A stretch of DNA of 64,000 nucleotides from Dehalococcoidia bacterium (GCA_965248115.1 CBDFII010000005.1:275123-339122), one strand, 5' to 3'; numbered from the stretch's first letter, positions 41,320 through 59,934 are shown. Numbers and translations are program-made. Notes: generated by a model from the letters alone, not told the origin.

Positions 41320-41347
41320 ATATCTATCCTAGATTGTGGTAGGTGCC

Positions 41348-42232
41348 ATGAACATCGTTTCGATCTATCGCCAATGGCCTACTGAGGGTGATTGCGTGGC
41401 CCATTTGGAGCAAGTCCGTTGGGGTTCCAAGCCAACATGCCCATATTGCCAAGCTGGACAGTCCACGCCAATTCCCAATGAGCGCCGCCATCACTGTAAC
41501 GCCTGCAACACTACCTTTAGCGTAACAGTCCGCACAATCTTTCACCAGTCCCATACCCCACTGCAAAAGTGGTTTCTGGCAGTCGCCATTGTCCTGAACG
41601 CCAAGAAAGGCATTGCTGCCCGCCAGCTTGCTCGTGACCTTGAGGTGAATAAGAATACTGCCTGGCGAATGGCGATGAAGATTCGAGATGCCATGAATGA
41701 GTCTGACCAGCGCATTATCTTGAGCGGGCTTGTCGAAATGGATGAGACTTTTATTGGAGGCAAACCCCGCCCCGGAAGTGGGGGAGAATCGCCAAAGCGT
41801 GGACGTGGCACTAAAAAAACCCCCGTAGTTGGCATGGTAGAGCGTGGTGGCCGTGTAAAGGCTGGTATAGCAAAGAAAGATTCCTTGACTGCTCCCAAAC
41901 TCTCTGCCTTGGTGCGAAGGAACGTTGACATCGCCAACTCAATCCTCATCACAGATGAATACAAAGGCTACCTTGGAATCAAGTCATTTATGACCCATGA
42001 GACGGTTGTCCACTCGGACTGGTACGTTGACGGCTTCCGGCACACGAATAATGTTGAATCCTTCTGGGCATTGCTCAAGAGGGGCATCATTGGCCAGTAC
42101 CACAAGGTCAGTCTCCGCTATCTGCCGAGGTACATTGACGAGTTCTGCTATCGCCATAACCATCGCAAGGCTGAGGATTTGTTCGGACTAACACTGGACC
42201 GGAGCGCCGGAATCAACTCTACAAAGCTGTAA
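41348..42232 (+). CDS. IS1595 family transposase (Zn ribbon + ISXO2-like DDE)
   Basis: CPYC..CNAC, VEMDETFIGG, ITDEYKGY, HTNNVESFW, YIDEFCYRHN. Confidence 0.94.
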   Translation: MNIVSIYRQWPTEGDCVAHLEQVRWGSKPTCPYCQAGQSTPIPNERRHHCNACNTTFSVTVRTIFHQSHTPLQKWFLAVAIVLNAKKGIAARQLARDLEVNKNTAWRMAMKIRDAMNESDQRIILSGLVEMDETFIGGKPRPGSGGESPKRGRGTKKTPVVGMVERGGRVKAGIAKKDSLTAPKLSALVRRNVDIANSILITDEYKGYLGIKSFMTHETVVHSDWYVDGFRHTNNVESFWALLKRGIIGQYHKVSLRYLPRYIDEFCYRHNHRKAEDLFGLTLDRSAGINSTKL

Positions 42233-42242
42233 GAGGTGTGAC

Positions 42243-43121
42243 ATGACAGAGCCAGTACCAAAGGCAACGCATCGTGGGATTCTCCGGATCGGCGAGATGG
42301 AGATTCCCTGCTTCGTACTGGAAAATGGTACAAGAGTCATCTCCGGCCGTGGCATGACAAAGGCAATCGGGATGAGAGGACGTGGCCAAGGCGTTGAACG
42401 TGTAGCCACGCATCCCGCCCTCAAACCGTATCTAGGCGACAAACTTTCAGTGGCCATCAGAGACCCTATTCGTTTCGTGGGAACAACCTCTCGAAAAAGC
42501 AACCCGACGTCTGGTTACGAAGCGACAATCCTTCAAGAATTGTGTGATGCCATTCTGACTGCGGACGAGGCTGGCGTTCTGAAAACTGAGCAAGAACGGC
42601 GCTATGCTAAGTTTAGCTATGTCCTCATTCGTGCTCTCGCACGAGTCGGTATCATTGCCCTTGTCGATGAAGCGACGGGCTACCAGGAGGTACGGTCACG
42701 TCGTGCCCTTGAGGAAATCCTGGAACGGTATATCTCAAATGAACTCCTAGCATGGGCAAAGACCTTCCCAGACGCCTTCTACAAAGAGATGTTCAGGCTT
42801 CGGCATTGGAGGTACACTCCTTTCAGCGTGGCTCGACCTAGCTATGTCGGCACCTTAACCAACGATGTCGTGTATGCTCGTCTAGCACCTGGAGTCCTCG
42901 AGGAACTTCGTCGCATCACACCGAAAGACTCAAAAGGCCGACGAAAGCACAAATTCCATCAGCGCCTCACCGAAGATGTAGGCCATCCACGACTTAGGGA
43001 ACACCTTGAGGCCACTACCGCTTTGATGAGGGCCTCGAATGACTGGAATGGATTCAATCGGCTTCTCCAACGGGCATACCCAAAGGTCAATACCAATCTT
43101 GAACTACCACTTGAGGAATAG
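42243..43121 (+). CDS. P63C domain protein (IS passenger)
   Basis: IPCFVLENGTRV, ARVGIIALVDEATGYQ, WAKTFPDAFY, KFHQRLT..GHP. Confidence 0.88.
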   Translation: MTEPVPKATHRGILRIGEMEIPCFVLENGTRVISGRGMTKAIGMRGRGQGVERVATHPALKPYLGDKLSVAIRDPIRFVGTTSRKSNPTSGYEATILQELCDAILTADEAGVLKTEQERRYAKFSYVLIRALARVGIIALVDEATGYQEVRSRRALEEILERYISNELLAWAKTFPDAFYKEMFRLRHWRYTPFSVARPSYVGTLTNDVVYARLAPGVLEELRRITPKDSKGRRKHKFHQRLTEDVGHPRLREHLEATTALMRASNDWNGFNRLLQRAYPKVNTNLELPLEE

Positions 43122-49030: not shown

Positions 49031-49417
49031 CTATCCACCCCGCATCAGGCACCAGAGCACCACGGTTATATCGGTGGTGGTGGGAAGAAAACCGGAGGTG
49101 GTGCTCACCACCACCTCTAAGAGATCTCCTTCCGCCAGATCCAGGATCCCCTGAAAGTATTTACCCTCCCGTCGGAAGTTGTTAGCGGAGTCCAGGACAA
49201 CCTGGGGGAAGGCCTTGATTTCGCCGTTGAGCACAACCTTGAAGGTTGCGTTACCCGCAGGTATCCCCTCAGAAGCGGATACCTGCATCAGCACGATGTC
49301 GCTGGGCCAGGGAACGATGTACTCATCGGCACCGCCGGCAGAGGAGAGAAAGGAGTTGACCAGGCTTGCTGCCAGGTCGGTGCGGGTATACACCAGCGAA
49401 TAGAGTCGAGTAGCCAT
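49031..49417 (-). CDS. Hypothetical beta-rich protein, last gene of the capsid operon
   Basis: 128 aa, GGAAGG RBS, co-oriented with capsid cluster. Confidence 0.6.
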   Translation of the reverse strand: MATRLYSLVYTRTDLAASLVNSFLSSAGGADEYIVPWPSDIVLMQVSASEGIPAGNATFKVVLNGEIKAFPQVVLDSANNFRREGKYFQGILDLAEGDLLEVVVSTTSGFLPTTTDITVVLWCLMRGG

Positions 49418-49463
49418 ATTTATCCTTCCTATCCTGAACCGTTAAAAGGATCAACGGGCACTG

Positions 49464-50105
49464 TTATGGCCCTACTACCTCTGTCTGGCTATGGCTGCCT
49501 CGGGCCGATGTATATAACCTTCTCGCCCTTAGAGAGCCGCGGCGGCTCAGTTTGGCCAGCCGCCCGTGGAAGTAGGAGAGTCTCTCCTGGCCCCAAGTTA
49601 GATAGCCCTGCCAGGTATCCTCTCCTCCTACGTTGACTCGATTGGTGGCGAAGCTAGACCACTCCAGAGACGCGTAGCCCTCCCCTCCCGCGGCCACCAG
49701 ATCCTCCAGGTGGGAGGGGACAGTGGAGGTGGTGGCATCCAGGGTGTGAAGGGTTCCGTGGTACACCTTGACCTGCTCCCCTCCCCCGGGCGCCTGATCC
49801 ACAAGCAAGGCTAGGGTGCTCTCCCACACGCTGAAAGGCACATAGGCGGGTGGATATTTGCCGGTGGGGTGCTCTACTGCCTCTACGTGTACTAGGTCAG
49901 TGATGGTGGAAAGGGAGAGGTCTCTGCTGCCCGCAGTGGTAGTGAGAGTGGTGGTCTGCTGTCGAGATACCGCCATACTCAGCTCTCTCACGGCGTGGTC
50001 TATGTGGCGGTCCAGCTCAGCGTCGCTCCACCGCAAATTGGCAGTGTCCTCGTCATGGAGGTCACGCCGCACTCGAGTACGCATTTGACTAAGGTCCAAC
50101 GTCAT
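49464..50105 (-). CDS. Putative phage head-completion/adaptor protein
   Basis: MRTRVRRDLHD..WSDAELDRHIDHAVRE N-terminus typical of head-tail adaptors; position after capsid. Confidence 0.65.
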   Translation of the reverse strand: MTLDLSQMRTRVRRDLHDEDTANLRWSDAELDRHIDHAVRELSMAVSRQQTTTLTTTAGSRDLSLSTITDLVHVEAVEHPTGKYPPAYVPFSVWESTLALLVDQAPGGGEQVKVYHGTLHTLDATTSTVPSHLEDLVAAGGEGYASLEWSSFATNRVNVGGEDTWQGYLTWGQERLSYFHGRLAKLSRRGSLRARRLYTSARGSHSQTEVVGP

Positions 50106-50403
50106 CCCTCTCCGAACTTAATGAAGCTCTTTTCATCTTTTGTGGTTCGCCATCGCTAAGTGGGAGGTCTTCACTGTTCCCATTGGGCGATGCTGCTCTT
50201 GTTATCCTTCCAGTATGGATGTCCAAGGACGCCTCTTGTCCCAGCAGGTTGTATAGACGCTCCAGCTCCAGAACTATCTCCTTCAGGTTCTGCTGTGCCA
50301 GCTCTGCCCGCAACTGGGCCCTCTGGGCTACACAGGTGGCTCGCCTGAGTCGGTAAAGGTCTTTGGGGGAGAGCTGCTTGATCTGGTCGAGAGGAACTCC
50401 CAT
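50089..50403 (-). CDS. Hypothetical coiled-coil protein (capsid cluster)
   Basis: AAGGAG RBS; overlaps next gene. Confidence 0.6.
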   Translation of the reverse strand: MGVPLDQIKQLSPKDLYRLRRATCVAQRAQLRAELAQQNLKEIVLELERLYNLLGQEASLDIHTGRITRAASPNGNSEDLPLSDGEPQKMKRASLSSERDDVGP

Positions 50404-50432
50404 GGCGGAATCTCCTTCTTGTCCTAAGTGGA

Positions 50433-50678
50433 TCAGATTCCCCTTTCCGTTCTTACCCGAGTGTCCATCAGAGAGGCAAGGGCAGATACGCCCTGTCTCT
50501 GAGAAGAGGACCCCATGGTGCTGAAGTCCACTCCATCAAGCTGGAGCATCTCCTGTTTCTGCACCGCACCCAGGCTGTCCAGAACATCCACGAGGAGAGT
50601 GACGGTCGTGATGTTGCTCCGCTCATCCCAGTTGACAATCATCTGACGCTTGCGTGTGGAAATTAGAGATATAGGCAT
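50433..50678 (-). CDS. Hypothetical protein (capsid cluster)
   Basis: AGGAGGAG RBS, 81 aa. Confidence 0.6.
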   Translation of the reverse strand: MPISLISTRKRQMIVNWDERSNITTVTLLVDVLDSLGAVQKQEMLQLDGVDFSTMGSSSQRQGVSALASLMDTRVRTERGI

Positions 50679-50687
50679 TTCTCCTCC

Positions 50688-51327
50688 TTAAGGCACGTCG
50701 CCCCAAGCCGTGCCGTCAAAGACTTGGACGCTGTTGGTGGTGGTGTTGTAGATCATTAGGCCAGCAGGAGGGCTGGCAATAGCATCTCGTTGGGTTGTGG
50801 TCATTCTTGGCGGTAGAAACCCTTTGGTAGTAGAGACAACATCCAACTCGGCAGCAGCGTTAGGAGCCGCACTAGAACCCACCATAAGTTCATTGACTAT
50901 AATTGACTATAGATGTAGGAGGATTGGTCTGATTAGGCCACAGGATGACAGATGCGCCACCTCGACGAAGCTGTAATCCTTTGTCCGAATCCAGGTAATT
51001 GCTTCCTCCTGTAGCTCCATATTTCAGAATACCCTGACCGCTACGCTCAAACCTCACCGGCTCCAGTGATGTGGAGAGAACCTGAAAAGCAACAGTCGGG
51101 ACAACACCTATGCCGACATTTCGTGCTTCTGGAAAGACGATATGGCTATTGTCCAGGGCATAAAGAATGCTGGTGCCACCGTCCTGGAAGTCGAAGATGC
51201 GGCCCGTGCCCTGCTGGTTCACCTTTAGCCCGGGGCTACTGTCGTTGGCCTTGATGTCCCTCAGCCAGCCATCGTAGTCCAGGCCTTGCACAATGCTGAA
51301 CTCTTCTCCTGCCAGTCTTAACGCCAT
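50688..51327 (-). pseudogene. Fibre-like virion protein split by a 10-bp tandem duplication
   Basis: NVGIG repeat and STTKGFLPPRMTTTQRDAI..GLMIYNTT motif; ATTGACTATA x2 at 50892-50911; removing one copy fuses both ORFs (209 aa). Confidence 0.72.
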
Positions 51328-51338
51328 GGTTGTCTCCT

Positions 51339-51719
51339 CTACGAAAGAAGATAGTCAACATCCAGGGAAAAGGAGGTGCCCGAGAAGGCCGTTACCTTCA
51401 GGAAGATAATCGCTCCCTGGGCATCTACCACAAGAGCGTGGTTGCCGGTAGCCACCAGCTGCCTTGACGCTCCCCCGTGCCACTGATTGAGTCGGGAGTT
51501 ATAGAAGATGACCTGCACATCCAGGGATTGAAAGCCCGTGCCGCTCAAAGTAATGTCGAAGCGGCACTCCTTGTATCCGGTGCAGTCTACCGCCCCCGAG
51601 GTGTCCGCTGGGTTCGAGGTATCCACCGCAGTGACACTGCTCCTATGGGCTGCAGGGGCTGTGGGTTCATACACAAAGCCTTTGGGCAGGCCGTTGGCGT
51701 CTATTCTTACGTTTGCCAT
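51339..51719 (-). CDS. Hypothetical beta-rich protein directly after the capsid (possible decoration protein)
   Basis: TAAGGAG RBS, 126 aa; function inferred from position only. Confidence 0.6.
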   Translation of the reverse strand: MANVRIDANGLPKGFVYEPTAPAAHRSSVTAVDTSNPADTSGAVDCTGYKECRFDITLSGTGFQSLDVQVIFYNSRLNQWHGGASRQLVATGNHALVVDAQGAIIFLKVTAFSGTSFSLDVDYLLS

Positions 51720-51781
51720 GGTTCACTCCTTATTAGGAAGCCTCACTTGCGTCCTTGCTGAGCACCATAGGGTTACCCCGC

Positions 51782-52672
51782 CTAGTCCCTGACGCCGGTG
51801 AGCTTAGCGAGCTTGAGGGAGTTGAACACAGCTATAGCCACGTACCACTTCACCCGTACCCGGCTAGCGTCCTTTACCTCCAGGCTGCCTACACGCTCAG
51901 CCTGGAGACCCCCAGGGGCGGTGAGACCCTCCACTGCCCCCTCTCCCCACTGGAGGGCGTAGATGGTGGAGCAGTCGGTGCTGCTGCCCACAGTCTTGGC
52001 ATCAGAGATATAGTCGTTGAAACCGATTGGTGTACCGTCGTAGAAGTCCACCATGCCACCGAACTCGTTGCGCTCCGATACGATAAGCCCGCTCCCCGTG
52101 GCCCCGGAGAGGGAAGAGAGCTTTCGACGGCTGCGGCGGCTCATCAAGAGCATATGGGGCTTGCCCGCTTTGACCTTATCTATCACCTCGTCCAGCTTTT
52201 CCAAGGTGAGGGTGCCTCCGTTGGCACCCATAGATACCGTCTGGCCCGAGGTGGCCAGCTTGTCGATACCATCGAAAGCGTTGGCATCGACGGCGGTGTC
52301 ACCCGTGATGAAGGTGTCATCGAACTTTTGTTGAACCGCCTTGGCCTTCAGCTCCACCACAGTGGCCTCCAGGTCCTGAAGGTTGGAGCGAGTGGACTTG
52401 AGGAAGTTGTCCACGTCGGCATCGCCGCCCAGGATCTTCAGATTGGCAGTAACCTGGGTGAAGGTGGGAGTGGACTCGGTCCAGGTGTCACCCACGGCGA
52501 AAAAGGCGGCGGAGGGCAGTGTATTCTCCTGGTTATAGGTGAGGCCGTTGCCTACTACCTCGATGAAGGGCATCGTTTGCAAAACCGGGCTCTCCTTGAT
52601 TATGGTCTCGATGACACCTGTGAGAAGTATATCCTGAGAGAGCTTGGAAGCCTCGGCTAGGGTTAGAGCCAT
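51782..52672 (-). CDS. Phage major capsid protein (HK97-fold type)
   Basis: MALTLAEASKL..ESPVLQTMPF..ILGGDADVD..AFDGI..RVKWY; 296 aa; AAGGAGG RBS. Confidence 0.88.
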   Translation of the reverse strand: MALTLAEASKLSQDILLTGVIETIIKESPVLQTMPFIEVVGNGLTYNQENTLPSAAFFAVGDTWTESTPTFTQVTANLKILGGDADVDNFLKSTRSNLQDLEATVVELKAKAVQQKFDDTFITGDTAVDANAFDGIDKLATSGQTVSMGANGGTLTLEKLDEVIDKVKAGKPHMLLMSRRSRRKLSSLSGATGSGLIVSERNEFGGMVDFYDGTPIGFNDYISDAKTVGSSTDCSTIYALQWGEGAVEGLTAPGGLQAERVGSLEVKDASRVRVKWYVAIAVFNSLKLAKLTGVRD

Positions 52673-52686
52673 TTGATTGTCCTCCT

Positions 52687-53001
52687 TTAGTTTTGATTAT
52701 TTGCCGGCGTTTTTTCGTTGGTGCTAATTGGATGGGTGGCCAAAATGTAGGCGATAAGAGGATTGTTTTTGTCGGGGGAGGAATGGAGGATATCCAGAAT
52801 GGTCTGGCGGGCGATCCGGGCGGCCTGGCGCTCCTAACGGAGCTGGCGACGGCGGACCTCGTTGAGGAATTTGCGGAGCTCGGGGACGCGGGCCAGGGAG
52901 GTAAAGATGTGCTTGAGGCGAGGGGAATGGCGGCCAGACTTGAGGGCGTTGAGGTTGCCCTTTGGAGCACCAGCACCGGGCCTTTTGCCGCCACGGGACA
53001 T
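52687..53001 (-). pseudogene. Terminase small subunit-like gene with in-frame TAG
   Basis: AGGAGG RBS; MSRGGKRPGAGAPKGNLNALKSG; TAG at 52834-52836, frame stays open 48 more codons to TAA abutting the capsid RBS. Confidence 0.6.
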
Positions 53002-53035
53002 TTTGACCTCCTGGATCAGTATGCAAAGAGAGTGC

Positions 53036-53049
53036 AGAACATATGTACT
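53036..53049. promoter_or_regulatory. Putative LexA (SOS) box upstream of the TerS-like/capsid operon
   Basis: AGAACATATGTACT, one mismatch to AGAAC-N4-GTTCT. Confidence 0.65.
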
Positions 53050-53067
53050 GTTACACACAAGGGGGAG

Positions 53068-53352
53068 ATGGCGGTTTTGGGGATTGGCGCTTTCTTGGGT
53101 CTATCCGCCGGGGACTTCTGGGGTAGCACCAAGGCCGCCCGCGACAGCGCCGCGGCGGGGTCAACTCTGCTCGTCACAGGTGGCAGAGTAGCGGCAGTCT
53201 CCGCATGGCTGGAGCCCTTCAAGTTCGTGGGTCTAGCCCTCTTTTTCGCCGGCATCGGCGTGGCCCTTTCGGCCATCATCCCACGGATTGAACTGCGGGC
53301 CCAGGCCATGGCCACGGTGATTCCACTACTGAAACAGCGTACTCAGGGATAA
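53068..53352 (+). CDS. Single-repeat (possibly 5'-truncated) paralog of the downstream membrane protein
   Basis: GDFWGSTKAARD..AWLEPFKFVGLALFF..I..ELR matches both repeats in 53393-54121. Confidence 0.6.
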   Translation: MAVLGIGAFLGLSAGDFWGSTKAARDSAAAGSTLLVTGGRVAAVSAWLEPFKFVGLALFFAGIGVALSAIIPRIELRAQAMATVIPLLKQRTQG

Positions 53353-53392
53353 CAATGTGTATCCCTTTAGCAACCAAGAAGGAGGAACAATC

Positions 53393-54121
53393 ATGGCAGC
53401 AGTAACAGGTGCAGGAGCGGCAGCCGGCAGGGTCACAAGTACCTCGGATATGACGGGTATGCAACGCATGGCCTCCAAGATGTGGGCGCCATGGGTCATC
53501 ATGGGGCTGATGATAGTGGCTATCTCTTTCATCATCTCCCTGTTTGTCCAGAACGCCGAGGCCGATTGGTGGAGCTTCCCCAAGGCGGTCCGGGACGTGG
53601 CTCCCACAGGCAGCGACATAGTCAATGATAGGCAATTTGCTGAGACCACCAAAGCTTGGCTCCCCGGGTTCAAGTTCTTCGGCCTTGGCATGATGCTAGG
53701 CGGCATTAGCTTTTTGCTAGCCACTATCCTCGGCAACCTTCGCGCCGGTGGCGCAGCGGTCCAGCGCTCTCTGGGCTTTACTGTTCAGTTCCCCAAGCCG
53801 CCTATGACTGCCATGCTCTTCCCCATGCTCATGATGATGGGGATGATAGTCCTCATAGCCGCCCTGGTGATCAGCATTATCCTTGGGTTCCAGGCCAACG
53901 ACCTCTGGAGCAATTCCATCGCCACCATTGACGGCGCCCCTGCGGGCTCTGAGATACTGCCCCAACTCGGGCGTATCGCCGCCATCAAAGCGTGGTTGGT
54001 GCCCTTCAAGTTCGTGGGCATGGCCATCCTCTTCTCCAGCATCGCCCTTGCCCTGGTAACCATAGTGTCAGTCCTCCGGTGGCAGAGTCGCCGGCTGGTG
54101 GAACTGGTGGAGAGCAAGTAG
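53393..54121 (+). CDS. Uncharacterised membrane protein with internal duplication
   Basis: AAGGAGG RBS; two repeats with AWLPGFKFFG / AWLVPFKFVG, four hydrophobic helices. Confidence 0.75.
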   Translation: MAAVTGAGAAAGRVTSTSDMTGMQRMASKMWAPWVIMGLMIVAISFIISLFVQNAEADWWSFPKAVRDVAPTGSDIVNDRQFAETTKAWLPGFKFFGLGMMLGGISFLLATILGNLRAGGAAVQRSLGFTVQFPKPPMTAMLFPMLMMMGMIVLIAALVISIILGFQANDLWSNSIATIDGAPAGSEILPQLGRIAAIKAWLVPFKFVGMAILFSSIALALVTIVSVLRWQSRRLVELVESK

Positions 54122-54306
54122 CCACCTCGCTAGCGGTTTTGTGGCACAGAACGCACACCGCCCGCAGAGGTCCTGAACCCTTACCAGGAATCCTGCGGGC
54201 GGTGATGTCTTAGGGACAGGGGAAGACGTTAACTTAAAGGGCCTTGCCCTGGTCTCTTCTCTGTCCAGAGGCTACAATAGAGGCAGCAGGTTTCTTCAGA
54301 GGGATC

Positions 54307-54789
54307 ATGGCAGATCAAGAGACATCGCTGGCACAAAAGCTACGTGACTATGTGGACACCGTGCGCAGTACAGACACCCTCGATAAGCTACGAGTCCACT
54401 GCATGGATCTACTGCTCTCCCTTCCGGACATGCAGCTAGCCGACTTTAAGGTGGAGAAGGATGTGTACGAGGGCCGGGTATATACCCTACTGGGGAACCT
54501 GGTGTTCGATTTTGAGCGGAACCTCCACTGGCAACTGAAAGACATGGAGATTCATATCAAGCACTACATCAACGATCTCCAAACCCGCAGGCCCCTGACC
54601 AGCTATGTCGTTATAGCTACTGACGGCCTGAGCTTCCACGTTTATATGCCACAATACGATGAGAGCGGTAAGGTGATGGAGTTGGAGAAAATCCACGGCC
54701 TGAACTTGGCCAGCCCTATGATGACCCCAGAACGGGCCATGGATGAACTGGGCATGGTCTTCCTCAAATTGCACCGCCCGGCCCCTTAG
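54307..54789 (+). CDS. Hypothetical protein resembling a degenerate restriction-endonuclease-like domain
   Basis: GRVYTLLGNLVFDFERNL..Y..VIATDGLSFHVY. Confidence 0.55.
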   Translation: MADQETSLAQKLRDYVDTVRSTDTLDKLRVHCMDLLLSLPDMQLADFKVEKDVYEGRVYTLLGNLVFDFERNLHWQLKDMEIHIKHYINDLQTRRPLTSYVVIATDGLSFHVYMPQYDESGKVMELEKIHGLNLASPMMTPERAMDELGMVFLKLHRPAP

Positions 54790-54827
54790 GGTGAGGCCTG
54801 AGAGCCTCTGAGGATGAGTGGTTGGCG

Positions 54828-55133
54828 CTATCTTTCGTGGCTCATCGCCAGGGCACCCCAGGAGGCCACCAGGAAGGGCACCAGGTAGGTCAAGGGGACC
54901 TTCCATAGTAACGTCGCCGTCAATGACCCCGAGAACAGCACGTCTCCCTGGTTAAGCAGGGTGAGCACGGTACCCACTACCAGGCATGCCATTAGTGAGC
55001 GACGCAGCATGGGCCGGTGGCGAAGGGCGCAAGTCAAGCACTTAACCACCTCCAACCCTCCCCCCCTGAAACGAAATCTTCGCACCTGATCCAAGGCCTG
55101 GTTGCAGCTTTGACAGCGCTCGTTGCTCGCCAT
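54828..55133 (-). CDS. NrtS-like small nitrate/nitrite transporter with CxxC..CxxC N-terminus
   Basis: LVVGTVLTLLNQGD..WKVPLTYLVPFLVASWG. Confidence 0.7.
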   Translation of the reverse strand: MASNERCQSCNQALDQVRRFRFRGGGLEVVKCLTCALRHRPMLRRSLMACLVVGTVLTLLNQGDVLFSGSLTATLLWKVPLTYLVPFLVASWGALAMSHER

Positions 55134-55158
55134 TACACATCCAGTCAAAGAGGCTTCT

Positions 55159-56310
55159 TCAGGGACCCTCGTGGCGCGGTCCGATGAAGCGTTCGAGGGA
55201 GAAGGGAGATATGTCGATTTGAGTGTGGCCCTGGGTAACCAACTCCGCAGCGGCCTGACCCATTAGGGGACTCACAAGGATCCCCTTGCGTCCACCACCG
55301 GTAGCCAGGAAGACGCCCTCCCACCCTGGCACCTGGCTAATGACGGGTAGCCTATCAGGGGAGATAGGTCGAAGGCAAGCCGTCTGCAGCACCAGCTTGG
55401 CATCAGCTATCGTGGGCATAATCTTTACCGCATCCTTCATAATAGCCTGCCGGGCCTCCAGAGTTGGCTCACAGTCAAATCCTACCTCCTCCTCGGTGGT
55501 GCCTGCCCAGATAAGTCCGTCGGGTTTGGAGGCTACGTAGCTGCCGTGGTGGTACACCACGTGCTTCAGTGGCGGCCCGGGTAACTCCATGCGCAATATT
55601 TGCCCCTTTAGAGGGCCGATGGGCACCGGCACCCCCAGCCACCGCTCTGCCTCTCCGCTCCATGGCCCCATGGCAATTACCACCTTGTCACAAGCTATCT
55701 CGCCGCTCTTTAGTACAACGCCAGACACCCGACCGTTATCTCCTATAAGCCCTTCGACCTCACCATGGTGCAACGTAGCTCCGTAATGCTCGGCGGCCTT
55801 TTGTAGTGCCAGAGTATACCGATAGCTGTCCAGAGCCCCGATTCCTGAGAGATAGAGGGCGTTGGTGACCTGGGGCGAAACCCTTGGCTCCAGAGACATC
55901 ACCTCCTCCCCCGTAAGCCAACGTATGGAGAACTGCTCGACAAACCCCGGCACCTGCTGGCATGATTGATAAAGGTGGCGAAGCTCCGCCACATCCTCCT
56001 CATCGAAGGCTACCCGTAGCAGGTGGAGCTGCCGGCCATGGAAGTCGATTCCCGACTCCTCCTTGAGCTGGTCCCACAAGTTTATATGCGTCCTAAGCCC
56101 CTCCAGGGCCCAAGGCCCTAAGGGGCCGGGCATGCCATCGCTTTCTAGAGGGTGCAGAGTACCGGCAGCGAAACCGGAGGCCTGGCTGGCCACATTCACT
56201 TTTTCGATGATGGTGGGTTTTACCCCTTGCTTGGCCAGAAAATAGGCGGTGGCGCACCCTGCCGCTCCAGCCCCAACTATTACAACATCGCTACTCTTGT
56301 CCAAAGGCAC
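55159..56310 (-). CDS. FAD-dependent oxidoreductase (DAO/glycine oxidase-like)
   Basis: VGAGAAG, ASGFAAG, KGQ, CLRP..D, ATGGGRKGI. Confidence 0.88.
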   Translation of the reverse strand: MPLDKSSDVVIVGAGAAGCATAYFLAKQGVKPTIIEKVNVASQASGFAAGTLHPLESDGMPGPLGPWALEGLRTHINLWDQLKEESGIDFHGRQLHLLRVAFDEEDVAELRHLYQSCQQVPGFVEQFSIRWLTGEEVMSLEPRVSPQVTNALYLSGIGALDSYRYTLALQKAAEHYGATLHHGEVEGLIGDNGRVSGVVLKSGEIACDKVVIAMGPWSGEAERWLGVPVPIGPLKGQILRMELPGPPLKHVVYHHGSYVASKPDGLIWAGTTEEEVGFDCEPTLEARQAIMKDAVKIMPTIADAKLVLQTACLRPISPDRLPVISQVPGWEGVFLATGGGRKGILVSPLMGQAAAELVTQGHTQIDISPFSLERFIGPRHEGP

Positions 56311-56466
56311 CCCCGTGTAGACACGTCATCGTAATGTTAGCGCATCAGAAGGCAAACTTAAACGCCCAGCACCTTAGGGGCGCCTCTCTACTAGAATTGT
56401 AAGGCCCATTGCCATTCACCACCGGCTCTGGTAAAAAGGAGCGACATCAAAGAAGTGGAGTAAGAG

Positions 56467-57690
56467 ATGAACGTCGCCAGAAGGATGCTGAACCTGGGCA
56501 CCGAGACCGCCTTCGAGATGCTGGCCAAGGCTAGAGTACTGGAGGCCCAGGGTAGGGAGGTTGTTCACCTAGAGATAGGCGAGCCTGACTTCGATACCCC
56601 TTCCCATATTGTGGAAGCAGGGGTGGAGGCGCTGCGTCAGGGCTACACTCACTATGGCCCCACTGCAGGGTTGCCCGAACTCCGGGAGGCCATCGCCCGT
56701 AACGTGGGCAAGACTCGGGGAATCGCCGTGAACTCCGATCAGGTGGTGGTGACCCCAGGAGCCAAGCCCATCATGTTCTTTACTATCCTTGCCCTGGCCC
56801 AGCGAGGCAGGGAGGTCATATATCCCAACCCTGGGTTCCCCATCTTCGAGTCCATGATCCGCTACTGCGGTGCAAAGCCGGTGCCCATGCCCCTTCTGGA
56901 AGAGCGAGGCTATCACCCCGACCTCGAGGACTTGGCGCTGAAGATCAACCGGCGCACCAGCCTCGTGATTCTCAACTCGCCCCACAACCCCACAGGCTCG
57001 TTGCTCTCCCATGCTGAGCTGGAGGCCATAGCAGATATGCTTAAAGGACGGGAGGACCTGTACGTTCTCTCCGACGAGATCTACAAGGATATCATCTACC
57101 CACCGCAGGGATCAGGTCAGGTCAAGGGAAAGCATCACAGCATAGCATCCCTACCTGGAATGGCTGAAAAGACCATCATCCTCGACGGTTTCTCCAAGAG
57201 CTACGCTATGACGGGATGGCGCTTGGGCTATGGGGTATTCCCCCAGTTGCTAGTGCCCTACATAATCAAGCTGGCCGTCAACAGCGTCTCCTGCGCCGCC
57301 TCTTTTACCCAGAGAGCCGCCCTCGAAGCTATAGAGGGGCCTCAGGACAGCGTGAGAGAGATGGTGGAGGAGCTACGTCGTCGCCGCGACCTTATCACGG
57401 AAGGGCTAAAAAGCATACCAGGCATAAACTGCCCCTGGCCCGAGGGTGCTTTCTATGCTTTCCCTAGCGTCAGAGAGACAGGAATCGGCAGTCGGGATTT
57501 CCAAGAGCGGGCACTTACCGAGGCTGGGGTTGCCCTGCTGGATGGCCAGTCCTTCGGCCGCTTTGGGAGGGGCTACGTGCGAATCTCCTACGCCAACTCC
57601 CAAGAGAACCTGGCCAAGGCCGTGGACCGGTTGGCTTCCTTCGTGGCTAAGGCCTCCAAGAAAAGAGTTTACCGGCGCGCAAGGGCGTAA
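56467..57690 (+). CDS. Class I/II PLP aminotransferase (aspartate aminotransferase-like)
   Basis: GEPDF, NSPHNPTG, SDEIY, GFSKSYAMTGWRLG. Confidence 0.93.
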   Translation: MNVARRMLNLGTETAFEMLAKARVLEAQGREVVHLEIGEPDFDTPSHIVEAGVEALRQGYTHYGPTAGLPELREAIARNVGKTRGIAVNSDQVVVTPGAKPIMFFTILALAQRGREVIYPNPGFPIFESMIRYCGAKPVPMPLLEERGYHPDLEDLALKINRRTSLVILNSPHNPTGSLLSHAELEAIADMLKGREDLYVLSDEIYKDIIYPPQGSGQVKGKHHSIASLPGMAEKTIILDGFSKSYAMTGWRLGYGVFPQLLVPYIIKLAVNSVSCAASFTQRAALEAIEGPQDSVREMVEELRRRRDLITEGLKSIPGINCPWPEGAFYAFPSVRETGIGSRDFQERALTEAGVALLDGQSFGRFGRGYVRISYANSQENLAKAVDRLASFVAKASKKRVYRRARA

Positions 57691-58205
57691 GCAATCTTCT
57701 CCCGGGCCGACAGGGTCGAGAGGGCGGCGGAGCCCCTGGTGGGTGCACCGGTGGGTACCCGATCCTGGGACTTTTGAGCCTCCAGTTGATTCCTCACTCG
57801 CTCCACCATCTGTTTTGCACTAGCAAAGGACTCATCCACCTCAGATAGCGTCTCGCCCTGTACAAGCTCCTCGGGGACCTCTGGAGCAGAGGATAAAAGA
57901 AGGCTGCGGTACTGGTTGACGGCCTGTGCCACTTCCTGCCGAAGAGCCTCTGCCTCCTCCTCCCGCTGCGCCAGGCTGGTCTCAAGCTGTTGGTTAATAC
58001 CCTCCAGCTCGCTAACGCGCTGGGACTGGAGGATCATGGCGACCTCCATCTCCTCGATACGAGCCTCCCCCTGGGCCTGAGCCTCCTCCACAAGGGAGGG
58101 CACCTCGGCCTCAGGGGCCTCCTCGGGAGCTTCGGATTCCTGGGAGGACTCTTCATCGCCGCTGTTGTGTTCCTCTTCCACAGTCTCCATCTCTTTTACA
58201 TCCAT
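57669..58205 (-). CDS. Putative capsid scaffolding protein
   Basis: Acidic N-terminus, long coiled coil, C-terminal LSAREKIAYAL helix; directly downstream of the portal. Confidence 0.65.
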   Translation of the reverse strand: MDVKEMETVEEEHNSGDEESSQESEAPEEAPEAEVPSLVEEAQAQGEARIEEMEVAMILQSQRVSELEGINQQLETSLAQREEEAEALRQEVAQAVNQYRSLLLSSAPEVPEELVQGETLSEVDESFASAKQMVERVRNQLEAQKSQDRVPTGAPTRGSAALSTLSAREKIAYALARR

Positions 58206-58235
58206 AAAGTCATCCTCTCTTTCAAGGTCTTTTTA

Positions 58236-59601
58236 TCAGCTGGCTCCATTAGTACTTAAAGGTCTGGCACTAATCTGCCCCTCTTCGCCAATTCTCCCAA
58301 GCTCCATCTCGGGGTCCTCGATGCCCAGGTTATCCATGGCCCGCCGGCGGCTGTGGAGCCCCATCTCCACCAGAGTCCGCTCCTGCTGTACCAGACGGCT
58401 GACGTCCTGGGGCAGGATTGGGCCCCAGATGATGCGGATGCGCAGGGGGCCGTAGCTCACCCCTGTCCGCTGCTCCAAGATGCGCAAAATCATCTTGATG
58501 CGGTCACGGTAAACCCGGGAACGGGTCCGCCGCTTTCTCTGTATCCGCTGGAGCAGGGGGTGCATCTCCATCTCTAGAGCCACCCCTGAGAGACTGCGAG
58601 GGTTGTCTCCAAAGCTAATCTTGGGCGCCTCAGAGAGGTCGTGGATGATCTTAGCGAGGATATTAATGTAGTCGGTGTGCAGCTTCACCCCGCCACCCTG
58701 GAGCAGGTCTAAAAGATAAGCGCGAGCCTTTTCAGGAAGCTCCCACACTGCTCCAGGTTCTACAGCTATATCCCGTGCCTCCTCCACTCCCTCCAGAACG
58801 GCAATGGGGTTCCCCGAAAGCTCCAGGATGGTGGAGAGTTGAGAGATGGCCCGGTTTAGCTCCCGGCTGGGCTCAATCAATATGGGAATATCACTGGTGC
58901 CCCAGAACTTTTTGGGCTCCCGCAGGTTGGGAAAGATGATGAAAGGTATAAATCCGTAAGGATTAAGCCTCTCATCCAGCAACACATCGTCGGCCCATAG
59001 CTGGAAGAGCTGCCGGCGTCCAGCCCTCTACTACCGTGACCTCTTGTCGGGGATGGGCTGGGTTAATACCGTAGAGGGTCTCAGCCGCTTCTGCCGAAAG
59101 GACGTACCGGCTGGCCACCCGCCACACCTGCGACGGATCGTCGCCCACCCACCAGGCGTAGATGCCCTGAACATCGGGAGAGGTAATCCGCACCCTCTCT
59201 TCTTGGGGGTCCCAGGTCAGCTTGTAACAGCCATCTCCCAGGATGGCCGTATCCAGCTCAGTCTCGAAATCCAACTCCTCAAGACCATTGGCCTCGTATA
59301 CTTGGCGAACAGCCCTTTCTGATTCCCGCGCTCTCTCCTCCCGGGACCCTCCATCTAATGGGTCCAGGGGCTCGATGGAGAAGGATGTGCCAGAGACCAG
59401 GTAAGAGGTGAGCTTCTCCACCAATAGCTTGGCGTAGTTGAATGTGAGACGCCTTTCCCCTCTACGTGGCGTCCCCTGCCACTGGACTCCGCCATAAAAT
59501 TCCAGGTTCTCTCGGTAGGCTCTCTGTCTATCCAGGTCCAGGCGGGTGAGCTGTTGGGGAAGACTCAGGGTATCGGTAGAGGGAATGTTGAGAGTGGTCA
59601 T
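58236..59601 (-). pseudogene. Phage portal protein, split by a frameshift near 59010-59017
   Basis: TFNYAK..AILGDG (ORF1) and NPYGFIPF..FPN..WGTSD..SGVAL (ORF2); removing one base gives ..WTPQLFQLWADDVLLDE.. Confidence 0.8.
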
Positions 59602-59876
59602 GCCGCTGCCCTCCGGAGGATGCGGAAGATAGTACGCTGGCTCAGTGCGAAGCGCGCAGCCAATTGGGGCACGGGCAATCCCTCGGTCTGCTGCACCTTT
59701 AGCACCTCCTGATCCCTTCGGCTGCGTATCTCTCGCTGGTACCAGGATGGGTCGTCATACTTGCATTGGGGTAAGGGGCATTTGAGACAGGAAGGGGACA
59801 CTTCGCATCCGTCATCGCGAAAGTGGTAGTACTCCGGGTAGGTATCCAGCATCACGCTTCCCCTCTGTCTTACCAT
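59598..59876 (-). CDS. Cys-cluster + C-terminal HTH (Mor-like) regulator
   Basis: CEVSPSCLKCPLPQC then LAARFALSQRTIFRIL; stop overlaps portal start (ATGA). Confidence 0.78.
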   Translation of the reverse strand: MVRQRGSVMLDTYPEYYHFRDDGCEVSPSCLKCPLPQCKYDDPSWYQREIRSRRDQEVLKVQQTEGLPVPQLAARFALSQRTIFRILRRAAA

Positions 59877-59904
59877 AGTCTCCTCTCCACCCATTGTTCT
59901 GCCG

Positions 59905-59934
59905 AGTATAGAACATATATTCTAATAGAGTCAA
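59905..59934 (-). promoter_or_regulatory. Sigma70 promoter with LexA-type box in the spacer
   Basis: Minus strand TTGACT-18 nt-TATACT; AGAACATATATTCT at 59910-59923. Confidence 0.75.

Follow-up and report, generated by a model that had tools for sequence, protein, structure and literature searches.

Gene transfer agents (GTAs), such as RcGTA of Rhodobacter capsulatus, BaGTA, VSH-1, Dd1 and VTA, are phage-derived systems that reside in the chromosome, often at several loci, and are regulated by the host; for RcGTA, a link to LexA has reportedly been found. Phage-inducible chromosomal islands of the capsid-forming type (cf-PICIs) have their own terminase, portal, capsid and connector genes and no tail; compact and mobile, they also encode an integrase, regulators and replication functions, and they pass from one species to another. 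To our knowledge, domesticated phage particles come from only a handful of lineages. The Dehalococcoidia, which are difficult to culture and manipulate, abound in sediments, aquifers, soils and the deep ocean; literature searches at the level of titles and abstract openings revealed no such system in Dehalococcoidia or Chloroflexota. Here we analyzed a 64,000-nt stretch of a Dehalococcoidia genome (the window; CBDFII010000005.1:275123-339122), which carries phage-type genes, all on the minus strand, in an element at positions 49031-59934. With moderate confidence, we regard these genes as part of a phage-derived head-assembly and DNA-packaging set that is chromosomally fixed and vertically inherited in Dehalococcoidia, GTA-like in its intact members and eroded in the genome carrying the window (G000; 2.49 Mb, 5 contigs, 89.6% complete). 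The window holds two of the three scattered pieces of this ancient set in G000, and a probable large terminase (TerL) locus on another contig is the third.

The original prediction, made from the window, had read the minus strand as a helix-turn-helix (HTH) regulator, a portal and a scaffold-like gene, then a TerS-like gene, the major capsid protein (MCP), a beta-rich protein, a fibre-like protein, small open reading frames (ORFs), a head-completion protein and another beta-rich protein, and this order was confirmed (Table 1). Three assignments within it needed revision. The identity of the portal held (SPP1_portal, phrog_64 and phrog_156; profile match 54.6 bits against a cut-off of 25.5), but a frameshift breaks the frame into ORFs of 209 aa and 249 aa in place of one SPP1-type frame of ~430–460 aa. 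The TerS-like ORF is present, but its frame is interrupted by an in-frame TAG and it has no family match of its own. The head-completion protein is better named a portal adaptor.

The prediction had also proposed a search for a stand-alone large terminase, and a probable one is present on contig C1 as a 474-aa ORF (G000:C1:129048-130472), with Terminase_6C matches of 19.4–21.7 bits, below the cut-off of 22.6, and matches to TerL PHROGs at 5e-6. The Terminase_6N and TerL_ATPase profiles had no match in the whole G000 genome. The TerL family alignment shows that the G000 protein retains the conserved GGKNE, DE and Asp motifs, which we take to be Walker A, Walker B and nuclease motifs. Three small ORFs (p125, p115 and p103) precede TerL, and the locus is flanked by the host genes TatD, HD and HIT. 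We considered p115 as a candidate TerS; its Atlas leads were weak (T5 small terminase 0.81, DUF1804 0.80, DUF5681 0.77) and the assignment is not claimed. In family f52, TerL is intact in 5/5 genomes and lies 12–17 kb from the MCP.

The layout of the set was traced in relatives. Among 41 genomes, one per family of the same order with G000 included, the MCP was found in 12, G000 counted, at 72–83% identity. In the relatives G008, G038, G006 and G028, the gene order is p125-p115-p103-TerL-HTH-portal-(insert)-scaffold, and this TerL-to-scaffold block lies 45–350 kb from the MCP module. An MCP scan across one genome per species yielded 70 loci, all in Chloroflexota chromosomes and nearly all in metagenome-assembled genomes labelled Dehalococcoidia, with MCP identities of 54–82%. 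A compact contiguous form of ~10.5 kb occurs at L060 and L064, in the order p115-TerL-HTH-portal-scaffold-MCP-adaptor-small ORF-c35-70-aa ORF. Over the 70 loci, the core comprised the MCP (70), adaptor (60), c35 (59), the 70-aa ORF (45) and the scaffold (41). No further widely conserved gene was found beside the MCP on either strand in these loci, the large minus-strand clusters being antisense shadows of core genes. Tail tube, tape-measure, sheath, lysis, replication and integration genes were not conserved near any of the 70 loci, the rest of the genomes not having been searched. Genes downstream of the adaptor in some relatives were considered as tail genes, but they belong to the host and encode CorC/CNNM, a histidine phosphatase, TilS and GyrB.

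The nature of c35, a 661-aa protein, came from its fold alone, since by sequence it had no Pfam, PHROG or PDB match. Its AlphaFold2 (AF2) model (pLDDT 90.9) has an N-terminal beta-propeller and a C-terminal half with the central tail hub fold, which Foldseek matched to the hubs of contractile injection systems, Mu gp44, T4 gp27 and VgrG (E 3e-15 to 1e-10; TM up to 0.74 on the target). It was not found in G006, G064, G038, G030, G028 and G039; G029, G351 and G232 have it, as does G008, where an insertion sequence splits the gene. As G006 keeps an intact TerL and portal with no c35, head-only variants persist. The predicted products of the relatives' set are thus those of a head with its packaging motor, an adaptor and a hub for the tail tip; genes for a tube, a tape measure, lysis, replication or integration are missing from the vicinity.

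Distribution of the MCP followed host taxonomy. In a survey of 401 genomes of the order it was present in 72, almost always in single copy and structured by family and genus, with nearly every genome of a positive genus carrying it, as in f7 (11/13; genus g7 10/10), f24 (14/21) and f31 (4/4); the same survey found none in f12 (0/11), f14 (0/24), f17 (0/15), f23 (0/24) and f25 (0/24). A survey of 401 genomes of the class, 299 of them high-quality, found the MCP in 217 and in 171 of the high-quality genomes (e.g. g150 22/22, f76 22/25, f81 11/12); one positive, G632, is flagged unpublished. Co-divergence was measured on 20 chosen genomes with listed coordinates (families f46, f52, f45, f30 and f31) together with G000. 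MCP and GyrB pairwise distances were strongly correlated (Mantel r 0.933; 210 pairs, 21 genomes, 0/5000 permutations as high), also inside families (r 0.844, 58 pairs), and the two trees were near-identical in shape with sub-clades in common. Both trees put G000 beside family f52, which has the same aminotransferase/oxidoreductase insertion as G000. In this family the pair sits between scaffold and MCP at L043, L044, L047, L048, L051 and L063. Other neighbours are shared as well: six genomes have the HD gene upstream of the small ORFs, at a distance of ≤7 kb, and six have gyrB ≤8 kb from the MCP module.

Pairwise Nei–Gojobori estimates against nine relatives gave ratios of nonsynonymous to synonymous divergence (dN/dS) of 0.08–0.17 for the MCP, 0.16–0.38 for the adaptor, 0.22–0.34 for the scaffold and 0.17–0.19 for TerL, at dS values of at least 0.96, which are saturated. 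The closest bona fide phage MCPs, from siphophages of 42–60 kb, were at most 41% identical, and only 3 short contigs in IMG/VR had the same gene order. Vertical inheritance of the head and packaging set in Dehalococcoidia under purifying selection is well supported by these comparisons. The original prediction had favoured a domesticated system over a recent prophage, and had named homologs confined to intact mobile prophages, a patchy, host-incongruent distribution and a lack of purifying selection as findings that would speak against it. None of these was encountered: 70/70 loci are chromosomal in Chloroflexota with no mobility gene conserved, the distribution has family and genus structure with MCP distances tracking GyrB, and dN/dS is low throughout. 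Domestication is further favoured by the dispersed TerL and the inserted host genes.

The SOS control that had been proposed also proved to have a basis, in predicted LexA-type boxes in the promoters of three operons that recur in relatives. The box was defined as GAAC-N4-GTTC, a definition that rests on the promoter of lexA itself and on the Gram-positive-type box because recA of G000 has none nearby. The lexA gene, on contig C4, carries GAACATCCGTTC in its own promoter, which served as positive control; the G000 genome has 31 perfect and 632 one-mismatch sites in total. Two boxes in the window precede the HTH-portal and MCP operons (Table 1), and the TerL operon begins with a perfect box, which is flanked by TTGACA and TATTAT immediately before p125. 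In each operon the box falls within the putative -35/-10 hexamer pair or shortly after it. Among relatives, 4/4 have a box that precedes the p125 homolog by ~50 nt, and in 6/8 loci one lies ≤700 bp upstream of p115, with 0.23 expected per locus. Upstream of the MCP they were found in 22/69 loci, 6 of them perfect and often at -51, the background per kb being 0.032 for perfect and 0.296 for one-mismatch sites. Putative host SOS wiring of all three operons is supported by these predicted boxes.

As predicted, the window has no integrase, attachment repeat or large terminase. It has no tRNA, and the 6 Phage_integrase matches of the genome (tyrosine recombinase) lie neither in it nor near the TerL locus. 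No long direct repeats bracket the region, where only short chance-level pairs or an internal duplication of a membrane-protein gene were seen. GC is 0.55–0.59 across the region, the same as in the flanks. The flanks and interior had been described as ordinary host metabolic genes, and profile matches agree, on both sides as well as in 53357-57690. One side has GFO/IDH/MocA, SDR, hemerythrin and epoxide hydrolase genes, and the other a GTPase with TGS domain, polyketide cyclase, uracil-DNA glycosylase and isochorismatase.

The copy in G000 reads as eroded, with a portal frameshift, a TAG in c17, a split-looking fibre-like gene, and hub and 70-aa genes that were not found. At the frameshift site (59010-59016, minus strand), the seven bases CCGGCAG stand where relatives have 2–3 codons, i.e. 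one extra base; the relatives' portal there reads VVEGWT, 2–3 residues, then FQLW. A Logan contig of run X1, which may be the source sample, is identical to the window over 58400-59500. A 249-nt contig of run X2, from another study, has 11 differences and exactly one base fewer at 59015; as it is without the extra base, a near relative has an intact portal frame. Where c17 has the TAG, three homologs, an intact paralog among them, encode R, M or A, and the part downstream still aligns. Profiles of c35 and of the 70-aa ORF found nothing in a six-frame translation of the G000 assembly. The MCP, adaptor and TerL are intact, and at near-invariant sites the MCP has 1/97 changes, equal to the family median. 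The G000 copy has thus probably become unable to form particles filled with DNA only recently, or is on the way there, and would be a recently disabled member of the family.

Table 1 Features of the element and its promoters, by position in the window.
Feature	Position	Strand	Description
LexA-type box	59911-59922		GAACATATATTC (AGAATATATGTTCT on gene strand), 1 mismatch; between putative -35 TTGACT and -10 TATACT of HTH-portal operon
HTH98	59598-59894	minus	Small Cys-rich protein with C-terminal HTH, like phage late activator (Mor-like); phrog_836 1.9e-5; weak Pfam HTH_23 and Mor matches
Portal, N-terminal part	58972-59601	minus	209-aa ORF; phrog_156 portal 1.1e-6
Portal, C-terminal part	58236-58985	minus	249-aa ORF; Pfam SPP1_portal 1.2e-14; phrog_64 3.6e-26
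Scaffold-like	57669-58205	minus	Acidic coiled-coil protein; weakly supported, phrog_1793 head scaffolding 2.4e-3
Host insert between scaffold and MCP modules	53357-57690	both	Membrane protein, two unknown ORFs, oxidoreductase, aminotransferase
Class I/II aminotransferase	56467-57690	plus	8.3e-70
DAO-family FAD oxidoreductase	55159-56310	minus	1.5e-71
LexA-type box	53037-53048		GTACATATGTTC on gene strand, 1 mismatch; ~35 nt upstream of c17 ATG
c17, TerS-like ORF	~52690-53004	minus	Starts MSRGGKRPGAGAPKGN; in-frame TAG at 52834-52836
MCP, HK97 fold, intact	51782-52672	minus	phrog_212 7.6e-73 over residues 1-295; Pfam Phage_capsid 7.3e-10, 39.1 bits (cut-off 24.2); GP7 6.2e-10
p126	51339-51719	minus	Directly after MCP; AF2 pLDDT 87.5, all-beta
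p145	50890-51327	minus	Conserved N-terminal domain of fibre-like c6 family, divergent tail after
p65	50688-50885	minus	Fibre-like 65-aa ORF; phrog_1325 6.8e-9; tail-fibre phrog_30742 1.4e-7
p81	50433-50678	minus	Small ORF
p104	50089-50403	minus	Small conserved ORF directly upstream of adaptor
Portal adaptor, SU10 type, intact	49464-50105	minus	Pfam SU10_adaptor 1.1e-8, 36.2 bits (cut-off 27); phrog_399
p128	49031-49417	minus	Lineage-specific ORF at position where relatives have 661-aa hub-like c35

Homologs of HTH98 (39–59% identical) lie immediately upstream of the portal in relatives, between TerL and portal. The N-terminal portal ORF is 52–65% identical to the N-terminal half of the relatives' single-ORF portals (435–459 aa). 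The C-terminal ~100 aa of the scaffold-like protein share 31–55% identity with the ORF directly upstream of the MCP in relatives; this ORF family clusters in 41/70 loci and directly precedes the MCP in the compact relatives. The window ORF of c17 had no match in Pfam and PHROG profile searches, and a longer homolog matched the small terminase phrog_1889 at 5.6e-3; a firm TerS call was therefore not made and 'TerS-like' is kept. An intact 110-aa paralog of c17 lies elsewhere in the genome (G000:C5:440511-440945; L034:4470-4945), divergent from a DUF5131 (phage Gp37/Gp68-type) gene, and a perfect LexA-type box, GAACAAGTGTTC, stands between the two at C5:440933. A 301-aa open frame at window 51755-52660 on the plus strand runs antisense across the whole MCP gene and is open in relatives too; it is probably a codon-bias shadow and no gene.

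Downstream of the MCP, p126 is 45–71% identical in 12 relatives. A profile search of the PDB with p126 yielded nothing useful, a Foldseek search gave weak matches to XepA/YomS, the lambda tail tip and carbohydrate-binding modules (TM ≤0.59), and an Atlas lead pointed to XepA (0.93); p126 is taken to be a beta-sandwich protein, possibly with a decoration or binding role. Residues 1 to about 65–111 of p145 match the c6 proteins of relatives, one of which, 327 aa long, matches the tail-fibre family phrog_28766 at 2e-9. The C-terminal YNTT..G..W motif of some c6 members is held by p65, whose frame differs from that of p145, and p65 is probably the split-off end of the same fibre-like gene. No Pfam or PHROG match was obtained for p81, nor any tblastn match against 10 + 70 related loci. 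Identity of 44–57% over about 36–69 aa was found for p104 in 7/10 related loci, and the adaptor has full-length matches in relatives at 53–61%. The last ORF, p128, had no Pfam or PHROG match and no homolog in related loci, and the c35 profile fails to match it. A multi-copy 441-aa ORF, found at eight places in G000 on C1, C3, C4 and C5 (e.g. C4:58789-59838), is 82–88% identical to the one splitting c35 in G008, a genome of a different family; it is presumably an insertion sequence.

Further observations concern the surroundings of these genes. A 65-nt direct repeat of 78% identity (window 53203-53267 and 53990-54054) is an internal duplication of the inserted membrane-protein gene. An IS1595-family transposase gene (DDE_Tnp_IS1595 7.9e-34 and a zinc ribbon), followed by a P63C-domain protein gene (3e-36), occupies window 41336-43121, 6 kb from the end of the element, and looks like a separate mobile insertion. 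In some relatives, a divergent pair of an HTH_17 regulator and a PemK/MazF-like toxin lies upstream of the MCP module (L021:12267-13149, L022:13905-14760, L095:9057-9800); it is not in G000. GyrB is ~830 aa in some relatives (L021:3322-5823, L028:5260-7767) versus ~640 aa in others; an intein-like insert is suggested by families f24 and f7, where its match comes in two pieces or scores lower. A phylum sample contained 15 genomes outside the class with MCP matches at 49–57% (e.g. G929:C1:1642600-1643475), and in L097, labelled Thermomicrobiales, the portal comes after the MCP; these matches may represent phages or older branches of the element.

The evidence fits an old domestication in which selection kept the set, its control passed to a LexA-type regulator, and rearrangements and inserted host genes split it up. 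Resident phage-type structural genes with no replication, integration or lysogeny-control modules, vertical inheritance seen in MCP and GyrB and in shared insertions and neighbours, and purifying selection at saturated dS are all features of GTAs. We infer a GTA-like function, with particle formation, release and delivery, on these grounds. In intact relatives, DNA damage would lead to self-cleavage of LexA, and the TerL, HTH-portal-scaffold and MCP operons would be de-repressed; scaffold-assisted procapsids would form on the portal, be loaded with DNA by TerL, and be closed by the adaptor, plus the hub and the small protein where present. Because the genes are separated by as much as 350 kb and none for replication or excision exists, such particles could not carry their own blueprint, which would make the system GTA-like and not a virus.

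Several points weigh against this interpretation. Neither particles nor transcripts nor packaged DNA have been observed so far. A GTA would have a delivery tail and a lysis function, yet no lysis gene and no tail tube were found near the loci, the rest of the genomes not having been searched, which leaves release and delivery without an explanation; G000 also has no hub-like gene. We know of no solved precedent for an adaptor-plus-hub tail with no tube. At near-invariant sites, TerL of G000 has 11/153 changes and the portal pieces 2/55 and 3/101, above the family median, the portal pieces being the highest of their sets. Some relatives are pseudogenised: G028 has a frameshift in TerL, a stop in the portal and a frameshift in the MCP, and its copy is clearly dead, and G039, G019 and G018 retain fragments only. 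The co-divergence test covered 20 chosen genomes from five families only. By GyrB identity, the closest families to G000 have no MCP (f14 0/24, f5 0/5, f25 0/24), so many losses must be assumed, and the MCP is more conserved than GyrB (between-family p-distance 0.241 vs 0.346), an unusual trait in a gene of phage origin. Binding of LexA is a motif-based prediction, and recA of G000 has no LexA-type box within ~350 bp.

A plain cryptic prophage remnant, i.e. a functionless old head module decaying here and in relatives, would account for the lesions of G000 (portal frameshift, c17 TAG, split fibre-like gene, c35 and 70-aa ORF not found), for the relatives left with fragments or pseudogenes, and for the lack of an MCP match in most families of the order. 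It is nevertheless unlikely, since neutral decay that had run to dS of at least 0.96 would not leave frames open at dN/dS of 0.08–0.38. Intact single-copy MCPs in 10/10 and 22/22 genomes of two genera argue in the same direction, as do the slower divergence of the MCP than of GyrB, in step with it, the conserved promoter boxes and the intact catalytic motifs of TerL. An active or recently integrated temperate phage, of which the window would hold a part, shares with the locus structural genes under SOS-type control, as in many prophages. We consider this highly improbable, given a window free of integrase, att repeat and tRNA, host metabolic genes inside and around the element, a TerL on another contig, nearest phage MCPs no more than 41% identical, co-divergence with the host and unremarkable composition.

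Two further explanations were considered. A capsid-forming, satellite-like element resembling cf-PICIs would build its own small heads and take tails, lysis and perhaps induction from a helper phage; it would suit a set limited to genes of the head (TerL, portal, scaffold, MCP, adaptor), among which neither a tube nor a lysis gene is found, and the hub-less lineages of family f7 (G006, G064) that keep intact head genes. We see only a slim chance of this, because the conserved loci and their surroundings hold no gene for an integrase, excisionase, primase or replication, the genes are spread over 45–350 kb with host genes between and are not packageable as a unit or arranged as a compact island, and most members have a hub-like tail-tip gene of their own. 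Satellites moreover move between strains, whereas the set strictly co-diverges with GyrB. Alternatively, the shell and its partners may have been kept for a cellular role other than DNA transfer, e.g. to sequester or export DNA or protein in an SOS-linked manner, or to protect against related phages. Of the genes in G000, the MCP is the best preserved, with TerL and portal more changed, it diverges more slowly than GyrB, and hub-less variants persist, all of which such a repurposed capsid would explain. TerL and portal are, however, intact in most relatives examined (G008, G038 and G006; G028 is broken), with TerL kept in 5/5 f52 genomes, and their retention points to DNA packaging, while the hypervariable fibre-like proteins and the beta-propeller on the hub protein point to cell-surface contact; we give repurposing little weight. 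Nor does the set resemble an encapsulin, an HK97-fold shell with a cargo protein and no portal or terminase, as portal and TerL belong to its conserved genes.

A more ambitious version of the GTA-like reading is tentative, and we think it rather doubtful as a whole. Over half of the sampled Dehalococcoidia would carry a previously undescribed, LexA-controlled GTA of independent origin, its minimal particle consisting of an HK97-type head, an adaptor and a hub-plus-propeller tip with no tube, which would turn DNA damage into DNA export and exchange; tip-less lineages like G000 would keep a tailless capsid system. If true, vertically inherited, damage-inducible DNA packaging in over half of the sampled class would be a mechanism of gene exchange for slow growers. 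It would also be an independent case of virus taming, and structural work might gain from it a minimal architecture of capsid plus tip. The natural states of the set, compact, split by host genes, hub-less and pseudogenised, would show directly the order of loss and the parts under selection.

Compared with known systems, the set is closest to GTAs in having chromosomally fixed phage structural genes at several loci with no replication or integration genes, in its vertical inheritance and purifying selection, and in control by a host regulator, which is predicted here. It differs from them in its independent origin, with an MCP in phrog_212 and nearest phages at most 41% identical, and in lacking a nearby tail tube, tape measure or head-tail joining set, in place of which only the SU10-type adaptor and the hub-like protein are found, with no lysis genes identified. 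LexA-type boxes also stand directly on the structural operons, and its packaging and transfer are so far presumed. With cf-PICIs it shares head and packaging genes of its own; unlike them, the Dehalococcoidia set has no integrase, regulator or replication module, lies dispersed between genes of the host and diverges in step with it. The phrog_212 siphophages (Xanthomonas phage Xp15, Pseudomonas phages PaMx11 and Ab18, Gordonia phage Ewald) have an MCP of the same family, with 38–41% full-length identity, and a separate scaffold; they are complete phages of 42–60 kb with long tails, whereas here nothing is left but the head genes, an adaptor and the hub of a tail tip. In its C-terminal half, c35 of the relatives has the same fold as the central hubs Mu gp44, T4 gp27, VgrG and the Tal N-terminal domain. 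In contrast to these hubs, c35, which was not found in G000, has an N-terminal beta-propeller and follows the adaptor gene in relatives, with no tube, sheath or baseplate genes.

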